Shown here: positions 825 to 21,941 of the stretch, one piece after another | How positions within the stretch are numbered: the first letter of the stretch is position 1 | Layout: every line of letters begins with the position of its first letter | IMG/VR virus record: IMGVR_UViG_3300043427_003402 | Strand: one strand, 5' to 3' | Origin: a virus | Length of the DNA stretch: 64,000 nt | The notes under the pieces: generated by a model | Told to the model about the DNA's origin: nothing | Databases searched by the model: none | What the model saw: the letters and a program-made list of their open reading frames with translations, nothing else | Translations under genes and position numbers: made by a program

Positions 825-3800
825 GTGAGAATGAGTTTTGACCGTATTCTGTACAGCGAGTCACCGAGCGCTCAAATGCGTGGCACGCACCGCTGCGACT
901 CGACAATTAGCGAGCTAGTTACCAAGTTAACCCGGCACATTGTGTCGGCCCGAAAAGATACCGTCGGCCTGTACTCTTTTTGCCTGTTCGATGGTATTGG
1001 GCGCAAAACTGTTAACGCCAAGTCGGTCGAAGCTATCGTATTAGACTTTGACAACACTGAGGTACGCCAAGCCGGAGGGATACCGAACGGCCAAGTCGCT
1101 AAGCTGGGAAACATGGTTGACCCTCCGGTAAATCCGGAACAACTCGAGGAGCTTTTACGTGCTCGGAACATTCACTCTATCGTGACTACGTCGTATAACC
1201 ACAAGCCAGAGTGGCCTAAGTTCCGCGTCATCGTGTTTGTTACTGAGTCGATTCCCGTGCACGCCTACCAACACGTGGTAGGGGACTTCCTTACCGCATC
1301 CGGCATCGCACAGGGCCAACTAATCACTGGGCTTGATCCGTCTTGTGTCCAGGCTACCCGGCTTTACTATTACCCTTCCTGCCCCGCTGAGCGCCTCGGC
1401 GACGCCTACGCTGTGTACATTGAGGGCGAGGACTACGCCCCCGACGCGACGCCCTTCATCAATCAGCCTCGCGGCACAATCGGCGGCTCACCCACCGCCC
1501 CCTCCAACTCCCGTTCACCCCAATGGACCCAGGACCAAATAGCAAGGTACTTCGACCGCGCTATGCCCCACTTAGCACCACGTGTACGCGAGGCACAGGA
1601 ACGCGGCGGCTCCGAGATCCGGGTTCCTTGCCCTATTCACCACGGTGACGGCAACAATTTCGCCTTCTCCACCGGCAACGGTCTTTGGCGGTGTTTCTCC
1701 CAGTGCCCTTCGATGGGCATCATGGGCGGCGGTATGTATGCCCTCCACTACTACTGGCGCAAGATGAACGCCCAACCCGGCACCCCCGAAATGCCTTACC
1801 GCGACACCCGCGTCGAACTGGACGCTTGGCTCGGTCCGCCTATCCGCCCCGATGCCCCGCAAGAGCTCCAATCCGTGGTGCACATCGCCGCCCCTAGTTC
1901 CGTCCCCTCGTCTGCGCTCGTTTCGATTACGACGCATTCCGCACCGCGCTCCGCCCCTTCCTTCCCTTCCACCGCTGTTGATGAGGACGACGTTACTGTG
2001 CCGTCTTTGGCTTCGCTCACTTCTTCGTACGCTTCCGCTTCCGCTTCCCGTCATGGCTCCCCTTCCATCCGCCTCCATTCCCTCGAAGACGGTGCCGCCG
2101 AACGCGCCGAACGCGTCTACGATCTTTTCGGCACCCGTATCAACACGGTCAAGCACGACCTTGACGAGAACGGGACGTACCTTCGTCAGCTGACGGGCTC
2201 CGGTGACCGCCAATCCATTCGCAACGTGGAGATTTCACCTCAACCGATTTGGATCAGCCGCGCCGGTAAAGACCCGAACACTGGTTTGAAGTGGTACAAA
2301 ATAAATTACCGCGACGGCTCCGGGACCGAATCAGCAGTTTGGACAAAGCTGGATGACCTAAATCGACAAGACTTTACAAAACTTAAAAATTTGGGTGTCG
2401 CAAGCAAGTATCGCCCCGACATCTCCGAGTACTTCAACAACGCAGCGCACGCTTACGACGAGGTCAACGATTACGTGCCAGTGACCGAAGCTTTCGGCTG
2501 GCAACCGCTTCCTGGTGCGAAGACGGTCACCGACGCAGCGCTCGTCCTCTACAACGGGGACGCGGACACTGGCGCTTGCCCGATGACGGTGGTAGCCCCT
2601 TCCATCCTCACTGCTTCTCAAGGCGACCGTGAGACGTGGGTCAACCTGCTACGGGATATGGCGGCTGAACCCTTCCACGACTTTTGCGTGGCGTGGGCCT
2701 TCCTTGGTCTCTCCGCCGCCTCTCCGATCGTCAGCCGCCTCCAGATGCGCAACCCCTTGCTAATGTGCGCGTATCGCACCAGCGCGGGTAAGTCTACGCT
2801 CGCCAACTTGGCCCTCGCTTTGTGGACCAACCCGACCGACAGCACGTTGCCTGCTGACACGACCAACAAAGGTGCTGAGGACCTCATTGTAAAGCGCCCT
2901 GAGCTGCCCGTCCTCGTCGAGGAGTTTCAGCGCGTGGCCCGTGACAACCCCAAAGACGTCAACCGCTTCCTTTACGCCATGGCCAACGGCCAGCGCCGCG
3001 TCACCTCGAGCCGTGACTTGCAGCACCGGGGCGGTGAAGTGCGCAAGGGGTCTGTGCTGTTCGTCACCGAAGATGATCTAAGCAGTCAATTTCAGCAAGG
3101 CGCCAGCGTGCGTGTGTTGGTCATGACGGATCGCCCTTTGCCAGAGAAGACAGGCGCACACTGGTCTCAAAGAATTAAAGCGGTCGCTGACCGGCACTTC
3201 GGCGTGCTGGGCCCCGAGCTGGAGGCGCAGTATACTCGCAACTTGCGCATGTACTTGATCGAACACCAATCGCTGGTCAATCGGGTACGTAAAGAGGACG
3301 CACCGTTTGACGGGGATGATGTGAGCGCGATTGCCATGATGGGTTTTGGCCTGCGCCTTTTGTCGCGTTTGACGGGCGTAACGTTACCGGCAGAGGAAAC
3401 AATGCAGTACTTAATTGACACGGTGCGTGGCACGCGTGCAGTTGAGCGCGAAAATACGGATCTTAGGGATCAAATCTTCGCAGAGTTGATAATGTCAATA
3501 ACACAGTCTGACTGGTTGTCGATGGACGGAACGACTGAAGTTGCTTATGTGCCCAACCGAGGTCCTATAGCGGTACGGGGCAGGCAACTGATGCACCCGG
3601 ACGTGAGCGAGATGGAAATCTTCCTTCAAAGCGCACTGTTCCAAGACCTCATACGAAGACATCAAATTCACAACGTCAACAAGTTGGTTGACGCCTGGCT
3701 TCAAAAAGGTTTTCTTGCGGCGAACCCTGCTCGTCAAAACACCCGCGCCAGGTGGCACCGCAAGAACATCAACGGTCTCAGCAAGACAGATTTCAAGCAC

Positions 3801-3860
3801 GAAGGCGCCTACGTCTATCTTGTCACACCTTTGGGGATGCAGTTCGCCGATAGACATTAG
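825..3860 (+). CDS. Primase-helicase: N-terminal AEP-like primase, CHC2-type Zn finger, DUF927-like region and SF3-like helicase
   Basis: LDFDN and TTSYNH..KFRV primase-like motifs; CPIH..WRCFSQC; Walker A YRTSAGKST, Walker B VLVEE, NG-x-RR motif. Confidence 0.8.
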   Translation: MRMSFDRILYSESPSAQMRGTHRCDSTISELVTKLTRHIVSARKDTVGLYSFCLFDGIGRKTVNAKSVEAIVLDFDNTEVRQAGGIPNGQVAKLGNMVDPPVNPEQLEELLRARNIHSIVTTSYNHKPEWPKFRVIVFVTESIPVHAYQHVVGDFLTASGIAQGQLITGLDPSCVQATRLYYYPSCPAERLGDAYAVYIEGEDYAPDATPFINQPRGTIGGSPTAPSNSRSPQWTQDQIARYFDRAMPHLAPRVREAQERGGSEIRVPCPIHHGDGNNFAFSTGNGLWRCFSQCPSMGIMGGGMYALHYYWRKMNAQPGTPEMPYRDTRVELDAWLGPPIRPDAPQELQSVVHIAAPSSVPSSALVSITTHSAPRSAPSFPSTAVDEDDVTVPSLASLTSSYASASASRHGSPSIRLHSLEDGAAERAERVYDLFGTRINTVKHDLDENGTYLRQLTGSGDRQSIRNVEISPQPIWISRAGKDPNTGLKWYKINYRDGSGTESAVWTKLDDLNRQDFTKLKNLGVASKYRPDISEYFNNAAHAYDEVNDYVPVTEAFGWQPLPGAKTVTDAALVLYNGDADTGACPMTVVAPSILTASQGDRETWVNLLRDMAAEPFHDFCVAWAFLGLSAASPIVSRLQMRNPLLMCAYRTSAGKSTLANLALALWTNPTDSTLPADTTNKGAEDLIVKRPELPVLVEEFQRVARDNPKDVNRFLYAMANGQRRVTSSRDLQHRGGEVRKGSVLFVTEDDLSSQFQQGASVRVLVMTDRPLPEKTGAHWSQRIKAVADRHFGVLGPELEAQYTRNLRMYLIEHQSLVNRVRKEDAPFDGDDVSAIAMMGFGLRLLSRLTGVTLPAEETMQYLIDTVRGTRAVERENTDLRDQIFAELIMSITQSDWLSMDGTTEVAYVPNRGPIAVRGRQLMHPDVSEMEIFLQSALFQDLIRRHQIHNVNKLVDAWLQKGFLAANPARQNTRARWHRKNINGLSKTDFKHEGAYVYLVTPLGMQFADRH

Positions 3861-4214: not shown

Positions 4215-4217
4215 GTA

Positions 4218-4247
4218 TTGCATTTAGCCCAGCCTTTTTGCTAGCTT
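4218..4247 (+). promoter_or_regulatory. Sigma70-type promoter for the omegaRNA-tnpB unit
   Basis: TTGCAT (4218-4223), 18 nt, TGcTAGCTT (4239-4247); predicted start about 4253-4255, at the first base of the upstream scaffold. Confidence 0.5.
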
Positions 4248-4254
4248 AAGGCTT

Positions 4255-4348
4255 GGCCGGCCGGGCGGGTCGACCTCAATGCTCGCGGAGAGGGTAACCT
4301 CGAACCGAGAACCCAAAAGGGACGCCAACCTCAGGTTTTGCGCCTTAT
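4255..4348 (+). ncRNA. Upstream TnpB omegaRNA-like scaffold (4255-4328) plus first guide segment
   Basis: 62/74 nt identical to the scaffold overlapping the tnpB 3' end (5481-5554); substitutions are mostly in loops or compensatory. Confidence 0.75.
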
Positions 4349-4397
4349 GGGAAGCCGAAGAGCGGATCTGGCCACAGCGCGCCTTACGGGAAGCCAA
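4319..4397 (+). CRISPR. Miniature CRISPR-like repeat-spacer array upstream of tnpB (non-canonical)
   Basis: GGGACGCCAA (4319), GGGAAGCCGA (4349), GGGAAGCCAA (4388); 17-nt GCGCCTTAYGGGAAGCC at 4340-4356 and 4379-4395 separated by a unique 22-nt segment. Confidence 0.5.
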
Positions 4398-4402
4398 ACT
4401 TT

Positions 4403-5566
4403 GTGTATCAAACCTTCAAGTATCGACTCGAGCCTACCGAAGCGCAAAGAAGCACCTTTGCTCGTTTTGCGGGCAGCCGCCGTTTTATCTATAACTGGGC
4501 GCTTGCGGAGCGGATTGCCGTGTACGAACGTGATAAAGCGTCCTTGTCTTTTTTCAGCCAAAGCGCCGAGCTAACTAAGCTCAAACAGGAAGAAGACAAG
4601 GCTTGGCTAAACGAAGTGGACCGCAGAGTGCTGGTCTCGGGGCTCAAAGACTTGGACCTTGCTTTCCAAGCTTTCTTTCGACGGTTAAAGTCCAGCGAGA
4701 CGCCAGGCTTTCCGAAATTTAAAAAGAAATCACGCCGCGAGTCGTTTCGCTATGCGACAGGCGTCAAGGTACAGGACAATCGCGTTTATTTACCGAGTAT
4801 TGGCTGGGTCAAGCTGCGGCTTTCTCGCCCGGTGAAGGGTAAAATTTGTCAGGCCACGGTGCGGCAAGACGGCGAGCACTGGTTCGTTTGCCTCATCTGT
4901 GACGTACCTGCGCCCGAAGTAACCTCTGCGCCTACTGACGACGTGGTTGGCGTGGACGTCGGTATTAGCAGCTTTGCTCACCTGTCCGACGGCACGCAAA
5001 TCGAAAACCCGCGCTTCTTAGAGAGGGCTTTGGAGAAACTACAGGCGGCTCAGCAGGACTTGAGCCGCAAGACGCTGCGCTCGAATCGGTGGCGCAAGCA
5101 GGCCGCGAAGGTGGCGAAGCTGCATCGCAAAGTGCGAAATTCACGAACGGACTTTCTGCACAAGACATCCACTGACTTGGTCAAGCGCTATGACGCGCTT
5201 GCAGTCGAGACTTTGAGTATTGAAGATATGACGGTGACGGCTCACAGGAACCGGTCGCGAGCGATCGCTGACTCTAGCTGGGGCGCCTTCTTCGATAAAC
5301 TCGAATACAAAACTAAGTGGGCGGGTAAGCATTTGGTTCGCGTGGACCGGTACTACCCAAGCACTCAGTTGTGTTCATCTTGCGGTGCCCGCAAGGCCAT
5401 GCCCACCGACGTGCGCACTTATAAGTGTGACGCGTGCGGTTTGGTCATGGACCGCGATTTGAACGCAAGCCTAAACCTCAGGGCGGCAGGGCATGCCGTC
5501 CTTAATGCTCGCGGAGAGGGCGACCTTGAACCGAGAACCCGGAAGGGACGCCAATTGAACCTGTGA
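4403..5566 (+). CDS. tnpB: IS200/IS605-family RNA-guided endonuclease TnpB
   Basis: N-terminal FKYRLEPT..RFIYNWAL HTH; RuvC-I VGVDVG, RuvC-II VETL, Zn finger CSSC..CDAC, RuvC-III DRDLNASLNL; catalytic D/E/D all present. Confidence 0.95.
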   Translation: MYQTFKYRLEPTEAQRSTFARFAGSRRFIYNWALAERIAVYERDKASLSFFSQSAELTKLKQEEDKAWLNEVDRRVLVSGLKDLDLAFQAFFRRLKSSETPGFPKFKKKSRRESFRYATGVKVQDNRVYLPSIGWVKLRLSRPVKGKICQATVRQDGEHWFVCLICDVPAPEVTSAPTDDVVGVDVGISSFAHLSDGTQIENPRFLERALEKLQAAQQDLSRKTLRSNRWRKQAAKVAKLHRKVRNSRTDFLHKTSTDLVKRYDALAVETLSIEDMTVTAHRNRSRAIADSSWGAFFDKLEYKTKWAGKHLVRVDRYYPSTQLCSSCGARKAMPTDVRTYKCDACGLVMDRDLNASLNLRAAGHAVLNARGEGDLEPRTRKGRQLNL

Positions 5567-5614
5567 CCTACCCGCGTCAATTTCGGGAAGCCAATTGCCA
5601 TCCATCTCTTAACC
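5481..5614 (+). ncRNA. Downstream omegaRNA scaffold overlapping the tnpB 3' end, with guide, extra repeat and second guide
   Basis: Canonical position; hairpins GGGCGGCA/UGCCGUCC, AGG-GCGA-CCU, CCC-GGAA-GGG; GGGACGCCAATTG (5545) recurs as GGGAAGCCAATTG (5585). Confidence 0.75.
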
Positions 5615-5734
5615 AAAAGTAAACATTTGTTAACTTAATCTTTACTCTATTGACCTGCTGTCCCACTACTGTTAGTATGCTGAAAGGTTGGATTTGGTAG
5701 AATTTATTGGTTAAATTGCCTGTAGCGTGGTAGG

Positions 5735-7966
5735 GTGTTTTGGGCCGCGCTACGGGGTAGCGAGAGAGGTTTGGGTATGGTGCTGCAAACTGCGTCGGAA
5801 CCTGCTGACTTAAGCCCGCAGGGGGCTGTGGTTCCCCCTTACATTCAGGTGGTGTACGACTTCTCGTTTCTGCGTTTGTTTTTCAACGCTAACGCCCGCT
5901 GGGTAGGGCCGGCGGTCAGTGGGTTCGACATCGAGACCGAAGGCTTGTTGAATCCCCACGACGGCGAGGTAGCGACAATCCAGATTGAGATGTCTGGCCG
6001 GTGCTGGGTGGTGCACGTCCGGGCACCGGGTACTTTGTTGGACGTGCCGGATGTAGAATTGCTGCGCGCGTACCTTGAGGCGAACGAGGTGTGCAAGGTC
6101 ATCCACAACGCCAAGTTCGAGTTGAAGTGGATGATGAAGTACTTCGGCCTCGGCCTGCACGTGGACAACTTCCACGACACGATTATTGCCGAGTACATTT
6201 TGGCGGCGGGCTTCGGCTTCGGCGTACCATCGACGACCAGCTTCGAGTTTGACAGCAGCATCCTCGGCTTGGGCCAAGTGATGGCGCGCCGGTATAGTGT
6301 TGAGATGGACAAGGATGAAGCGCTGCGGGTTAGTTTCCGGCGCCACGGCTTGCTGGAAACCATACCGGCACCCAAGGACCCGTTACGGGACCGCAGCGAA
6401 ACTTGCCAAGTGGATGACTGCCCACGGGCACCGCGGTGGTTGGCGGGCGGCGCTCGGCAGTATCAGATTTGTGATTATCACCGCGAGAACAAGCACGAGG
6501 TCAAGGCTTTGAAGGCCTTGCGCCGGTGGGATGACTACCCAGAAAGGCCACAGCCGGGGGCCAAGATGTTTGGTGACTTGAGCGCTCGGCAGGTGTTGTA
6601 CGCGGCCTTCGACGTGCTGTATATGCCGCAGCTGTACGTTGCGCAGGTGCAAGAGATGAACAACCACGTGGGCTTGCGGGGTGATCGCCCGTATCCTGCG
6701 CTGTTCCGTTTGGACTGCCAAGTGGCAGAGTGTTTGGCGCGTATGGAACTGCGGGGTATCCCCATCGACCGGCGCCAGGCGTTTAAGACGCATCGCACGC
6801 TGATGTGGCAGGCGGACACGTTGCGCCAAGAGATTGTAGAGGCGTTGCGGTTACCGGGTGATACGGAAGACATCAATCCTGGTAGCCGGGATCAGATGTT
6901 ACCGCGGCTGGCGCAGTTGGGGATCAATCTGCCGGATTACCGCAGCGCCAGCTTGGAGCGCGCGGCTAGCCACCCGGTGATTCGTAAGTTGTTGACGTGG
7001 AAGCAGGTCGAGAAGCTCAGCACGTTCACCAAGACGCTGTTGTTGGAAGCGCACCCGAAGACGGATTGTGTGCACAGTAACTTCAACCAGACCAAGACCG
7101 CCACGGGTCGCTTGAGCAGCAGCGCGCCCAACTTCCAGAACATCCCAAGCAAAAGCAAGCTGTCTGCGGAGATCCGTAAGTGCGTAATGGCGCGTCCGGG
7201 ACGCGTTTTGGTCATTGCGGATTACAGTAACATCGAAGTGCGAATAATTGCAGAAGTGACACGCGACGAGAATCTGGTGCGCTTGTTCAACGAAGACAAG
7301 GACATGCACTGCATGACGGCGGCGTATATGATGGGGGTCTCGTACGACGAAATGTACCGCAAGTACAAGATTGAAAAGCTGCCGGAGTTCATCAAGGCGC
7401 GTAACAACAGCAAGGTGCCTAACTTCGGGTTGGGGTACAAGGCTAGCGTGGACAAGTTGCGTACAATGGCGTGGGTGCAATACGGGCTGGACTGGACTGA
7501 GGCAGAGGCCGCCGAACAGCACCGCAAGTGGTTTGAGTTGTACCCTGGCGTGGGTCACTGGCACACACGGGAGCAGGCGACAGTCCGTGACGGGAAGGGC
7601 CCGGTCACGGTTGAGAACGCGTTGGGCCGTCGCCGCACGATGCAGCGCCGGATCACGGTGACCCCGAACGCCAAGGCACTCGAACGCGGCGAGCAGCCGT
7701 ACTCGAAGGGCGCGTTGCCGGCGGTGTTGAACTTCCCGATTCAATCGGCGTCGGCAGAGATGACCAAACGCGCGATGGCGACGTTGAGCCGGGAAGTGGA
7801 CGTGATCCTGCAGGTGCATGACGAATTGGTTGTGGAGTGTGATGAGGCGGACGCAGACCGCGTGTCGCAGCTTGTGCACGACGCGATGGTCAAAAGTGGT
7901 GAGGGCATCCTGACGGTCGTTCCAAACGTGGTCGAACCGATGGTGAGTAAGTTCTGGAAGAAATAG
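5735..7966 (+). CDS. polA: Family A DNA polymerase with 3'-5' exonuclease (likely start ATG 5777)
   Basis: ExoI FDIETEG, ExoII HNAKFE, ExoIII YAAFD; TGRLSS..PNFQNIP; motif A ADYSNIE; motif B R..SKVPNFGLGY; motif C QVHDEL. Confidence 0.95.
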   Translation: MFWAALRGSERGLGMVLQTASEPADLSPQGAVVPPYIQVVYDFSFLRLFFNANARWVGPAVSGFDIETEGLLNPHDGEVATIQIEMSGRCWVVHVRAPGTLLDVPDVELLRAYLEANEVCKVIHNAKFELKWMMKYFGLGLHVDNFHDTIIAEYILAAGFGFGVPSTTSFEFDSSILGLGQVMARRYSVEMDKDEALRVSFRRHGLLETIPAPKDPLRDRSETCQVDDCPRAPRWLAGGARQYQICDYHRENKHEVKALKALRRWDDYPERPQPGAKMFGDLSARQVLYAAFDVLYMPQLYVAQVQEMNNHVGLRGDRPYPALFRLDCQVAECLARMELRGIPIDRRQAFKTHRTLMWQADTLRQEIVEALRLPGDTEDINPGSRDQMLPRLAQLGINLPDYRSASLERAASHPVIRKLLTWKQVEKLSTFTKTLLLEAHPKTDCVHSNFNQTKTATGRLSSSAPNFQNIPSKSKLSAEIRKCVMARPGRVLVIADYSNIEVRIIAEVTRDENLVRLFNEDKDMHCMTAAYMMGVSYDEMYRKYKIEKLPEFIKARNNSKVPNFGLGYKASVDKLRTMAWVQYGLDWTEAEAAEQHRKWFELYPGVGHWHTREQATVRDGKGPVTVENALGRRRTMQRRITVTPNAKALERGEQPYSKGALPAVLNFPIQSASAEMTKRAMATLSREVDVILQVHDELVVECDEADADRVSQLVHDAMVKSGEGILTVVPNVVEPMVSKFWKK

Positions 7967-20390: not shown

Positions 20391-21214
20391 GCGACATGCT
20401 GACACCTCGGCACCGTTACAACCGCGCGGCCATGAGTGTCGGCCTGCCCCCGGATCTTGACGGTTTAACTAACCGAGCAGCACCCGACGCGCTGACGCAA
20501 ATGGTAGAGACCGGCTTACGCGCGTGTGTTGGTGGGCAAGCCACGCGCAAACCGAAAGCCAAAGACAAAGCCCGGGGTAAGCTTATCGTTGGGCACGCAG
20601 ACTTCGCCCGCGCGTACGATCTCTACAAACAACCAGGTGCGCGCAAAACGTTCGATGCCGTGCTGCTAGCGACCTTGAGTGTAACGGACGCCGCAAACGT
20701 GCTGCGCGAAAAGGAAGCGTTTGTGCAGCTCTACGCCGACTGCTTTTTTGACATTTCGGTTTTCGAGGGCCCCACGGATCGGTTGACGTACCTCGATGCG
20801 GTCTACCGCCGCGACCCGCAGTACGCCCAGTTGCTGCGCAACATGCTGTCGGTGCCGCTTGAGCAGTTGCTGTTTATTGCAAATAGTTCGACAGGCGAGC
20901 GCTTGGACCCCAAGACGGTACTTGAAGCGGGCATGTCTTTGCATTACAATTTCATGCGGTTGTTCTCGCAGGTGAAACTAGAGACAATCATGTCGGCAGA
21001 CACGGACTCCGAAGATTACCGGCGGTTCAAGGAGATGTTCTCGATGGCGGTCACCGCGTCGAACTTGGCGCACAAGTTTGCTGACTCGCTGCTGAAGTAT
21101 GACTTGGATAAGGACCGCACCAACTTCTTGGACGAGTTTATTCTTAACCTGAGCAAGAGCAACCTTGCAGAGCACGTTTCTTTACCCGAAGCCGAAGACT
21201 TTGATATAATCTAA
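20387..21214 (+). CDS. Hypothetical protein
   Basis: GGAGG SD; overlaps the upstream stop codon. Confidence 0.65.
   Translation: MSDMLTPRHRYNRAAMSVGLPPDLDGLTNRAAPDALTQMVETGLRACVGGQATRKPKAKDKARGKLIVGHADFARAYDLYKQPGARKTFDAVLLATLSVTDAANVLREKEAFVQLYADCFFDISVFEGPTDRLTYLDAVYRRDPQYAQLLRNMLSVPLEQLLFIANSSTGERLDPKTVLEAGMSLHYNFMRLFSQVKLETIMSADTDSEDYRRFKEMFSMAVTASNLAHKFADSLLKYDLDKDRTNFLDEFILNLSKSNLAEHVSLPEAEDFDII
21202..21210 (+). promoter_or_regulatory. Consensus extended -10 promoter element
   Basis: TGATATAAT directly upstream of the orphan omegaRNA and HU-like gene. Confidence 0.5.
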
Positions 21215-21382
21215 GGGTCGGGCGATAACCAAGTCCGGCAACGGTAGAAATAAAATGGTATACCGCAGGGCATGCGGGAATTTAAGCTCGCGGAGAGGCT
21301 TAGCATTAGCGGCCTTGTCGAAACGAGAATCCCCCTGATTTAGCTGGGGGGGGGAAAGTCAAAGAGCTCTTATAAATTACGA
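21215..21382 (+). ncRNA. Orphan TnpB omegaRNA / non-autonomous IS200/IS605 right end
   Basis: Shares GCAGGGCATGC, GCTCGCGGAGAGG and GAANCGAGAA with the tnpB scaffolds; ends GAAT-CCCCC-loop-GGGGG-AAAG-TCAA (21362), the IS608-type right-end layout. Confidence 0.7.
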
Positions 21383-21389
21383 GGTTTGT

Positions 21390-21941
21390 ATGCCGCCACG
21401 TTTTTCCCTGTACAAGGCGCCCGTCACTCTCGGGTTCACCGAGGTGGAAGCGATCCTATCCGAGCGCACCGGTATCCGCCGCGACGACATCCGCCTTGTG
21501 CTGGACGAATTTTTCTACCTAGTCTTCGAGGCACTGCGCCGCGGGCACAACATTCGCTTGGCGCACATAGGCTTCTTCAACATCGTACGCACCTGGCCCC
21601 GGCTGTCGTGGAACTCTACGACCGGCAAACTGCAGTTCGTGCCGTCCGTGCATCAGGTCGGTTTTCGCGTGGCGCGCAGTACGTTGAATAAGATATTCGC
21701 TTACTTTACCAAGGGCCTTGAGCCAGTGGCACGTGAAGACTACGCTGAAGAAGTGTTACCTTATCACCTTGAGTACGCACTGCGTTCTGCGGACAAGCGG
21801 CTGTCACGAAACATGTTGGTCGATATGGAGGACTACGCGTTTTTGAAGCAGCTCGTAGAAGAGCTAAAAGAAAAAAGCCCAGAACCACCATCCTCTACCT
21901 CGTCCGAAGACGAGGTAGAAGGTGAGGAGTTGGTTACCTGA
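21390..21941 (+). CDS. HU/IHF-like DNA-binding protein with C-terminal extension
   Basis: LSERTGI..V..VLDEF..L..G..IRL..IGFF..R..WNSTTG...V.FR. Confidence 0.75.
   Translation: MPPRFSLYKAPVTLGFTEVEAILSERTGIRRDDIRLVLDEFFYLVFEALRRGHNIRLAHIGFFNIVRTWPRLSWNSTTGKLQFVPSVHQVGFRVARSTLNKIFAYFTKGLEPVAREDYAEEVLPYHLEYALRSADKRLSRNMLVDMEDYAFLKQLVEELKEKSPEPPSSTSSEDEVEGEELVT

Follow-up and report, generated by a model that had tools for sequence, protein, structure and literature searches.

The tnpB gene of a tailed phage was found to be flanked on both sides by minimised omegaRNA scaffolds, and behind each scaffold its last ten bases return in one or two further copies. The gene lies in a window of 64,000 nucleotides, the whole stretch of DNA analysed here (IMG/VR virus record IMGVR_UViG_3300043427_003402). 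We give roughly even weight to the interpretation of this locus as a phage TnpB cassette that has been domesticated and that encodes a guide RNA with alternative nested 3' ends.

PHROGs matches in the window included baseplate wedge, tail sheath, helicases and exonuclease. The tnpB gene (4403-5566, + strand) is intact, codes for 387 amino acids and is placed between a DUF927 primase-helicase (825-3860) and the family A DNA polymerase gene polA (5735-7966). Pfam assigned the domains HTH_OrfB_IS605, OrfB_IS605 and Cas12f1-like_TNB to the protein, which thus comprises the HTH, RuvC (D, E, D positions occupied) and zinc-ribbon parts of a TnpB. The catalytic residues of ISDra2 TnpB are D191, E278 and D361. 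When the protein was aligned with the ISDra2 TnpB chains 8bf8/8h1j (E = 2.4e-83), the catalytic columns were aligned with D, E and D. A TnpA-like match was not detected in the 64 kb window, although this was a weak test with a short query only, and a left-end hairpin was not found before tnpB. The third copy of the repeated motif ends 5 nt upstream of the GTG start codon and therefore leaves no space for a left end. The set of features typical of a transposon, i.e. a left end, a right end, TnpA and multiple copies or varying sites, was not found, and the site adjoining polA was the same in all three variants described below.

Variants of the locus were obtained from the members of the 90% clusters to which TnpB and PolA belong, and their contigs carry the same cassette adjoining polA. 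The samples containing them are JGI 3300047564 and 3300047510, SRR22077910 and ERZ23496966. Two contigs (L116 and L084) were identical to the window in the cassette region, one (L120) encoded a TnpB with 96% identity and three (L117, L118 and L119) a TnpB with 87% identity. The comparison thus comprises three haplotypes only, the window, L120 (the 96% variant) and L117 (the 87% variant). At the four-fold degenerate sites of tnpB 8.2% differed between the window and the 96% variant and 38.9% between the window and the 87% variant. The protein of the latter retained 87% amino-acid identity although 39% of the four-fold sites had changed, which shows purifying selection on TnpB. To the left of the cassette, genes were unrelated in the 87% variant (L117:310-1020 compared with window:825-4214), while polA on the right was common to both. 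The cassette therefore either moves together with polA or is located at a mosaic boundary.

The ten bases which close the tnpB omegaRNA scaffold at its 3' end, GGGACGCCAA (5545-5554), are found again at 5585-5594 as GGGAAGCCAA, differing at a single position. The match between the copies extends 3 bases past the ten-base repeat, and the recurrence of the 13-mer 5545-5557 at 5585-5597, put forward in the original prediction, was confirmed with a distance of 40 nt and a single mismatch (C5549 vs A5589). The motif GGGAMGCCRA occurred five times in the 64 kb, at 4319, 4349, 4388, 5545 and 5585, with an expectation of 0.79, and a count of five was reached in 0 of 100 shuffles. All five copies flank tnpB. 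Copies 1 and 4 (4319 and 5545) end the two 74-nt scaffold copies and have a C at the fifth motif position; the other three are extras and have an A. The C-to-A change which had been noticed as common to the downstream and upstream extra repeats therefore holds for all three extras. A Shine-Dalgarno reading of 5585-5594 was rejected, since no conserved start codon follows, and it was set aside together with an iteron reading because the motif is the end of an RNA scaffold. A tRNA reading of 5555-5625 gave no match with ARAGORN or Rfam.

The scaffold overlapping the 3' end of tnpB (5481-5554, + strand) was delimited by alignment to the right ends of relatives. It is a 74-nt direct repeat, with 84% identity, of the upstream minimised scaffold at 4255-4328 (+ strand), which ends in its own proximal tail at 4319-4328. 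In the downstream copy stem 1 is formed by 5481-5488 and 5494-5501 around the loop 5489-5493, and the last stem by CCC 5538-5540 and GGG 5545-5547, the latter being the beginning of the proximal tail 5545-5554. Six scaffold copies from the three phages aligned gap-free with 94.9% of the pair cells paired and with covariation in stem 1, and the four-base loops fitted GNRA in 5 of the 6. Relatives with TnpBs of 55-58% identity have right ends in which a stem of 8-9 pairs leads into about 8 bases that end in ...CAA. The scaffolds beside tnpB are cut down, their middle and last hairpins having each 3-4 pairs on a four-base loop. A structured scaffold is hence found to overlap the tnpB 3' end, with a sharp junction to variable sequence at ...CAA. 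No Rfam family matched the scaffold, and the folding energies of whole segments were no better than those of shuffles.

The tnpB frame (5478-5566) spans the whole scaffold and the proximal tail, and its stop codon (5564-5566) is located inside the first variable segment, the first candidate spacer. Since the frame runs through the scaffold, the last approx. 25 residues of TnpB are dictated by the RNA; these residues vary in length among the variants. Elsewhere in the window there is an orphan omegaRNA-like scaffold at 21200-21362 (+ strand), which has the long canonical form and a single end and provides a comparison within the same phage. It lies behind a TGnTATAAT-type -10 element, its single end reads ...GTCAA with no second tail after it, and the sequence 3' of it runs into a ribosome site and the start of an ORF at 21390.

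In the ISDra2 omegaRNA the nucleotides -5 to -3 pair with -103 to -105, thereby forming a pseudoknot, and -103 to -105 are located between the stem-1 strands -116 to -111 and -91 to -86 (PMC10097598). The nucleotides -6 and -2 are engaged in non-canonical pairs and stem 4 is positioned directly 5' of the pseudoknot strand; the crRNA-like region, as the authors call it, extends from the 3' strand of stem 4 through the pseudoknot strand into the guide (PMC10097598). The invariant letters of the five repeats in the window are the GGG that is the partner of CCC 5538-5540, one A, GCC at -5 to -3 and the final A, and the variable letters are at -6 and -2. Moreover, the stem-1 loop consists of GGGC and one further base in the six scaffolds, in the orphan and in the relatives, and its GGC is able to pair with GCC and, by wobble, with GTC. 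By homology with the ISDra2 omegaRNA the repeat would thus represent the 3' strand of the last stem together with the pseudoknot strand. The stem-4 and pseudoknot pairs never covaried; there was too little variation in the three haplotypes.

The region downstream of the proximal tail was divided by alignment of the variants. The segment directly after this tail, the first candidate guide (5555-5573, + strand), was delimited by alignment and a divergence test; its first 8-12 nt were hypervariable and its 3' half was fairly conserved. It is followed by a 21-nt distal unit (5574-5594, + strand), composed of an arm (5574-5584) and the tail GGGAAGCCAA (5585-5594), and then by the segment after the distal tail, the second candidate guide (5595-5614, + strand). 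In the distal unit 0 changes were found among the window, the 96% and the 87% variant (P ~3e-5 at the neutral rate from window to 87% variant). The proximal tail had one change in each relative. Across the three phages the extra tails read GGGAAGCCAA in 7 of 8 cases and GGGAAGCCGA in one. The segments after the tails behaved very differently from these tails: between the window and the 96% variant 24 of 63 aligned columns differed, compared to 15 of 183 four-fold sites (Fisher p = 2e-7). They accordingly diverge approx. 4 times faster than four-fold codon sites, and to the 87% variant they were unalignable. From the 21-nt identity and this excess of changes we concluded that the repeat is under strong constraint whereas the following bases turn over unusually fast. 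Both in the proximal and in the distal copy the edge of conservation is sharp at ...CAA, as it is at a scaffold-guide junction. Among the three variants the segments after the tails were hypervariable or replaced, several of them being homologous and fast-diverging rather than newly acquired. In the 87% variant the 11 nt at 5595-5605 were replaced by unrelated 29 nt, and near-identity resumed from 5606, where the block upstream of polA begins. This block of about 55 nt (5606-5660) was nearly unchanged between the window and the 87% variant despite the 39% difference at four-fold sites, and it contains the -35 element of a predicted polA promoter (5650-5655). It is likely a regulatory region.

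The original prediction had argued against a chance duplication, and had made the conservation of the repeat in relatives its test. Both points were borne out: a distal repeat follows both scaffolds and is strictly kept in two diverged relatives while the sequence behind it changes. Two further claims did not survive the comparison. The similar period on both sides of tnpB is coincidental to this phage, as the gap between proximal and distal tail was not conserved (30, 31 and 35 nt downstream in the variants, 20 to 34 nt upstream), and 5574-5584 resembles the upstream GCGCCTTAC only weakly, a resemblance that is not retained upstream in the 87% variant. The same conservation speaks against a neutral relic, i.e. 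a now functionless remnant of either a tandem right-end duplication or related elements inserted into one another. A duplication of this kind does occur, as in an unrelated viral TnpB locus (L078:4108-4193) in which the last 41 nt of the right end, the last stem and the tail, are duplicated head to tail with no spacer. In the window 5555-5561 is moreover a repeat of 5525-5531, as a module duplication would leave behind. A relic is however disfavoured by the conservation of the repeat, with 21 nt unchanged among variants in which 39% of the four-fold sites differ, right beside segments changing faster than four-fold sites, and by the presence of the arrangement after both scaffolds in three phages. 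We regard it as very improbable.

On the upstream side a promoter-like block (4215-4249, + strand) precedes the scaffold, with TTGCAT at 4218-4223 and a TG-extended TAGCTT at 4239-4247. It was not called in the consensus promoter scan. Between the window and the 87% variant it had one aligned difference, where the four-fold sites differ at 39%. The scaffold is followed by extra tail copy 2 (4349-4358, + strand), which reads GGGAAGCCAA in both variants, and by copy 3 (4388-4397, + strand), which the 87% variant retains and the 96% variant has lost. Upstream too, the promoter-like block and the scaffold were thus conserved and the tails kept as GGGAAGCCAA, with unrelated segments between the tails in the 87% variant. 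The upstream scaffold and its two extra tails (4215-4402) lie within the tnpB leader, behind the conserved promoter-like block, and this leader is possibly autoregulatory.

The position of the upstream tails in the leader, the third only 5 nt from the start codon, would fit an explanation in which the tails are conserved cis elements: TnpB binding sites regulating the expression of tnpB or polA, signals for RNA processing or stability, or right-end-like sites for an IS200/IS605 transposase of the host. In IS608-type elements the right end is cut directly 3' of such a ...CAA position. Nicking after ...CAA by a transposase would lead to fast mutation of the adjacent bases, and the hypervariability is indeed concentrated directly 3' of each ...CAA, the IS608-type cut position. 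A possible local hairpin before each distal tail is also in line with such sites. On the other hand, a tnpA-like sequence was not found in the window, in what was a weak test, and the match of the repeat to the pseudoknot and stem positions of a guide RNA is left unexplained by a site acting at the DNA level. We consider cis elements an unlikely explanation.

The flanks before the distal tails differ in sequence, and their common feature is complementarity to the end of their own scaffold. Downstream, the arm 5574-5587 is complementary to 5538-5551 with 12 pairs and a 2x2 internal loop, with 36 of 36 cells paired across the three variants. This long helix has four substitutions in its 5' strand, all of them one-sided changes that keep the pairing with the invariant 3' strand. 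The same 3' arm can close a local hairpin of 4 pairs, in which two pair-keeping changes were seen. For all 8 distal tails the 17 nt 5' of the tail together with its GGG paired better with their own scaffold end than GGG-ending 20-mers from the rest of the window did. The p-values were 0.011-0.31, combined 4e-4, for cases that are not independent, namely the three downstream ones and some related upstream ones. This might be a repeat/anti-repeat pairing, a possibility supported by modest p-values and one-sided changes.

Since pairing with the scaffold end is possible for the bases preceding the distal copy, a single scaffold could offer either of two guides. In the model of nested ends each ten-base repeat would be the part of the omegaRNA just before the guide, comprising GGG, one A, the GCC pseudoknot strand and the junction bases. 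In a first fold the short stem 5538-5540/5545-5547 would close on the tetraloop, and the proximal tail would present the sequence from 5555 onward as guide. In a second fold 5574-5587 would pair with 5538-5551 to give a last stem of 12 pairs, 5555-5573 would be looped out, and the distal tail 5588-5594 would present 5595 onward as guide. Alternatively, a processed scaffold might pair with the distal unit in trans, like a tracrRNA with its repeat. TnpB would presumably load both registers, with the variable segments as guides. The proximal register may be weak, since the short last stem has 3 pairs compared to 8-9 in relatives. Counting against this model are the conserved 3' half of the first segment, which is not expected of a free guide, the variable stretch after the distal tail, which is only 11 nt long in the window, and the third upstream tail, which would present the tnpB start region as guide and is dispensable in the 96% variant. 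The repeat-spacer unit originally described at 5545-5614 hence stands as a non-chance, conserved arrangement found after both scaffolds. A nested alternative 3' end belonging to one and the same scaffold describes it better than a CRISPR-style repeat with spacer, because the first segment is partly conserved and 5574-5587 can pair with the scaffold end.

The long helix can also be taken as the only last stem. The distal copy would then be the sole true scaffold end, with the last stem 5538-5551/5574-5587, the apical loop 5555-5573 and one guide from 5595, and the proximal GGGACGCCAA would merely be part of the 5' strand of the helix. Its 12 pairs equal the last-stem length of relatives and of ISDra2, where the short stem has 3; the distal unit is conserved more strictly than the proximal tail; and an apical loop would be free to vary in sequence and length, as observed. 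However, the proximal ...CAA is invariant in the six scaffold copies and directly borders the hypervariable bases, which a loop would not require. The single-guide reading also leaves unexplained the GNRA-fitting tetraloops in 5 of 6 copies and why the 5' strand copies the tail, it would make the tnpB start the guide of the most distal upstream tail, and for one upstream unit of the 87% variant the helix is poor. We find one guide per scaffold doubtful, and this applies equally to the proximal tail as simple helix strand. We keep nested ends as the preferred reading.

Targets of the candidate guides were searched in the window, related loci, cultured phages and IMG/VR, and none above chance were found. 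In IMG/VR one 18-mer match was obtained where approx. 3 were expected by chance, and a 14/16 match of the first segment inside tnpB was estimated to be at chance level. A spacer match to foreign DNA beside a PAM or TAM was likewise not detected in these searches, and 5595-5614, originally proposed as a second guide, is a candidate only.

The scaffold patterns gave chance matches only in IMG/VR, metagenome and genome collections, and the 21-nt unit was absent from IMG/VR. TnpB relatives in IMG/VR were at most 40% identical, the TnpB protein search returned no match between 58% and 100% identity, and close PolA relatives were not found in IMG/VR. Phages with a PolA of 63-65% identity carried neither the cassette nor the motifs. 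Pairs of GGGAAGCCAA at 36 loci in IMG/VR were rejected as coding repeats, the spacing being a multiple of three in 70 of 75 cases. Among 73 other TnpB loci right-end repeats at 25-60 nt were not enriched over the control (44 vs 63), the one true case being L078. Another TnpB of this subfamily, likewise carried by a phage, is encoded between genes for tail fibre and holin (L110:2600-2700, also L111 and L112); its scaffold tail ends in ...GAGCCAA, with a second GCCAA 3 nt further.

On the way from TnpB to Cas12, least is documented about how a single fixed transposon guide became a repeat-spacer array, and in the published intermediates full-length repeats and separate tracrRNAs are already present. 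What is repeated here are, by ISDra2 homology, the bases completing the last stem and the pseudoknot. If both registers load, the locus would show how an array can start, with several guides per compact scaffold, and would have practical relevance to TnpB multiplexing. Should a single register load, the locus is still a clean natural case of an omegaRNA minimised to 74 nt beside a domesticated phage tnpB. Arrays have been proposed to arise by serial duplication of omegaRNA segments (PMC10691335). We propose, tentatively and with less confidence than for the nested ends as such, that this phage lineage has, in the absence of CRISPR machinery, derived a device for several guides from a single TnpB guide RNA, by means of nested ends and rapidly evolving guides. 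If true, the birth of an array through serial duplications of an omegaRNA end could be observed here in a living system, together with a new way of encoding multiple guides. By its sequence the locus resembles a CRISPR array at a very early stage and of the phage's own making, with a presumed use of the guides.

The cassette is closest to the ISDra2/IS608-type TnpB-omegaRNA systems (PMC8612924, PMC10097598), with which it shares the TnpB family, a scaffold overlapping the 3' end of the gene and an end composed of a stem, a short strand able to form the pseudoknot, ...CAA and the guide. It differs from them in that no tnpA and no recognisable left end were found and in its 74-nt scaffold with two hairpins of 3-4 pairs on tetraloops, as well as in the second scaffold upstream of the gene, the extra copies of the terminal ten bases after both scaffolds and its fixation in a phage lineage. 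Standalone omegaRNAs and irregular omegaRNA-like arrays (PMC10691335) similarly provide extra guide-bearing RNAs with a sharp conservation boundary between scaffold and guide, but those arrays repeat more than 60 bp of the scaffold and here only its last 10-21 nt are repeated. The Cas12r-CRISPR systems of Thermus Lalka phages, which are used in conflicts between mobile elements, are alike in having a phage-encoded type V-like nuclease (bioRxiv 10.64898/2026.04.20.719267); they possess a full array with spacers matching known elements, whereas here neither a usual array nor a spacer match was found. An array of at least three repeats of about 23-40 bp with regular spacing and unique spacers is not present in the cassette, which has two to three tails per scaffold. 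With the TranC intermediates (Jin et al., Cell 2025, as described in PMC13565253 and bioRxiv 10.64898/2026.03.27.714800) and type V-U* (PMC10691335), the cassette has in common a TnpB-sized nuclease and repeats derived from the 3' part of the guide RNA, the scaffold corresponding to a tracr-like partner and the repeat to a crRNA-like part, and some of these systems are phage-borne as well. The TnpB matched LaTranC in the C-terminal third only. The TranC arrays have repeats of 32-38 bp in 3-20 copies with regular spacing. The cassette described here has a 10-nt core (21 nt downstream) that is copied once or twice more at distances varying between 20 and 35 nt, nested on the scaffold with no separate array. 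Distinctive of this locus are thus the very short repeat, its nesting on the scaffold and the two sets of scaffold plus tails around one gene.
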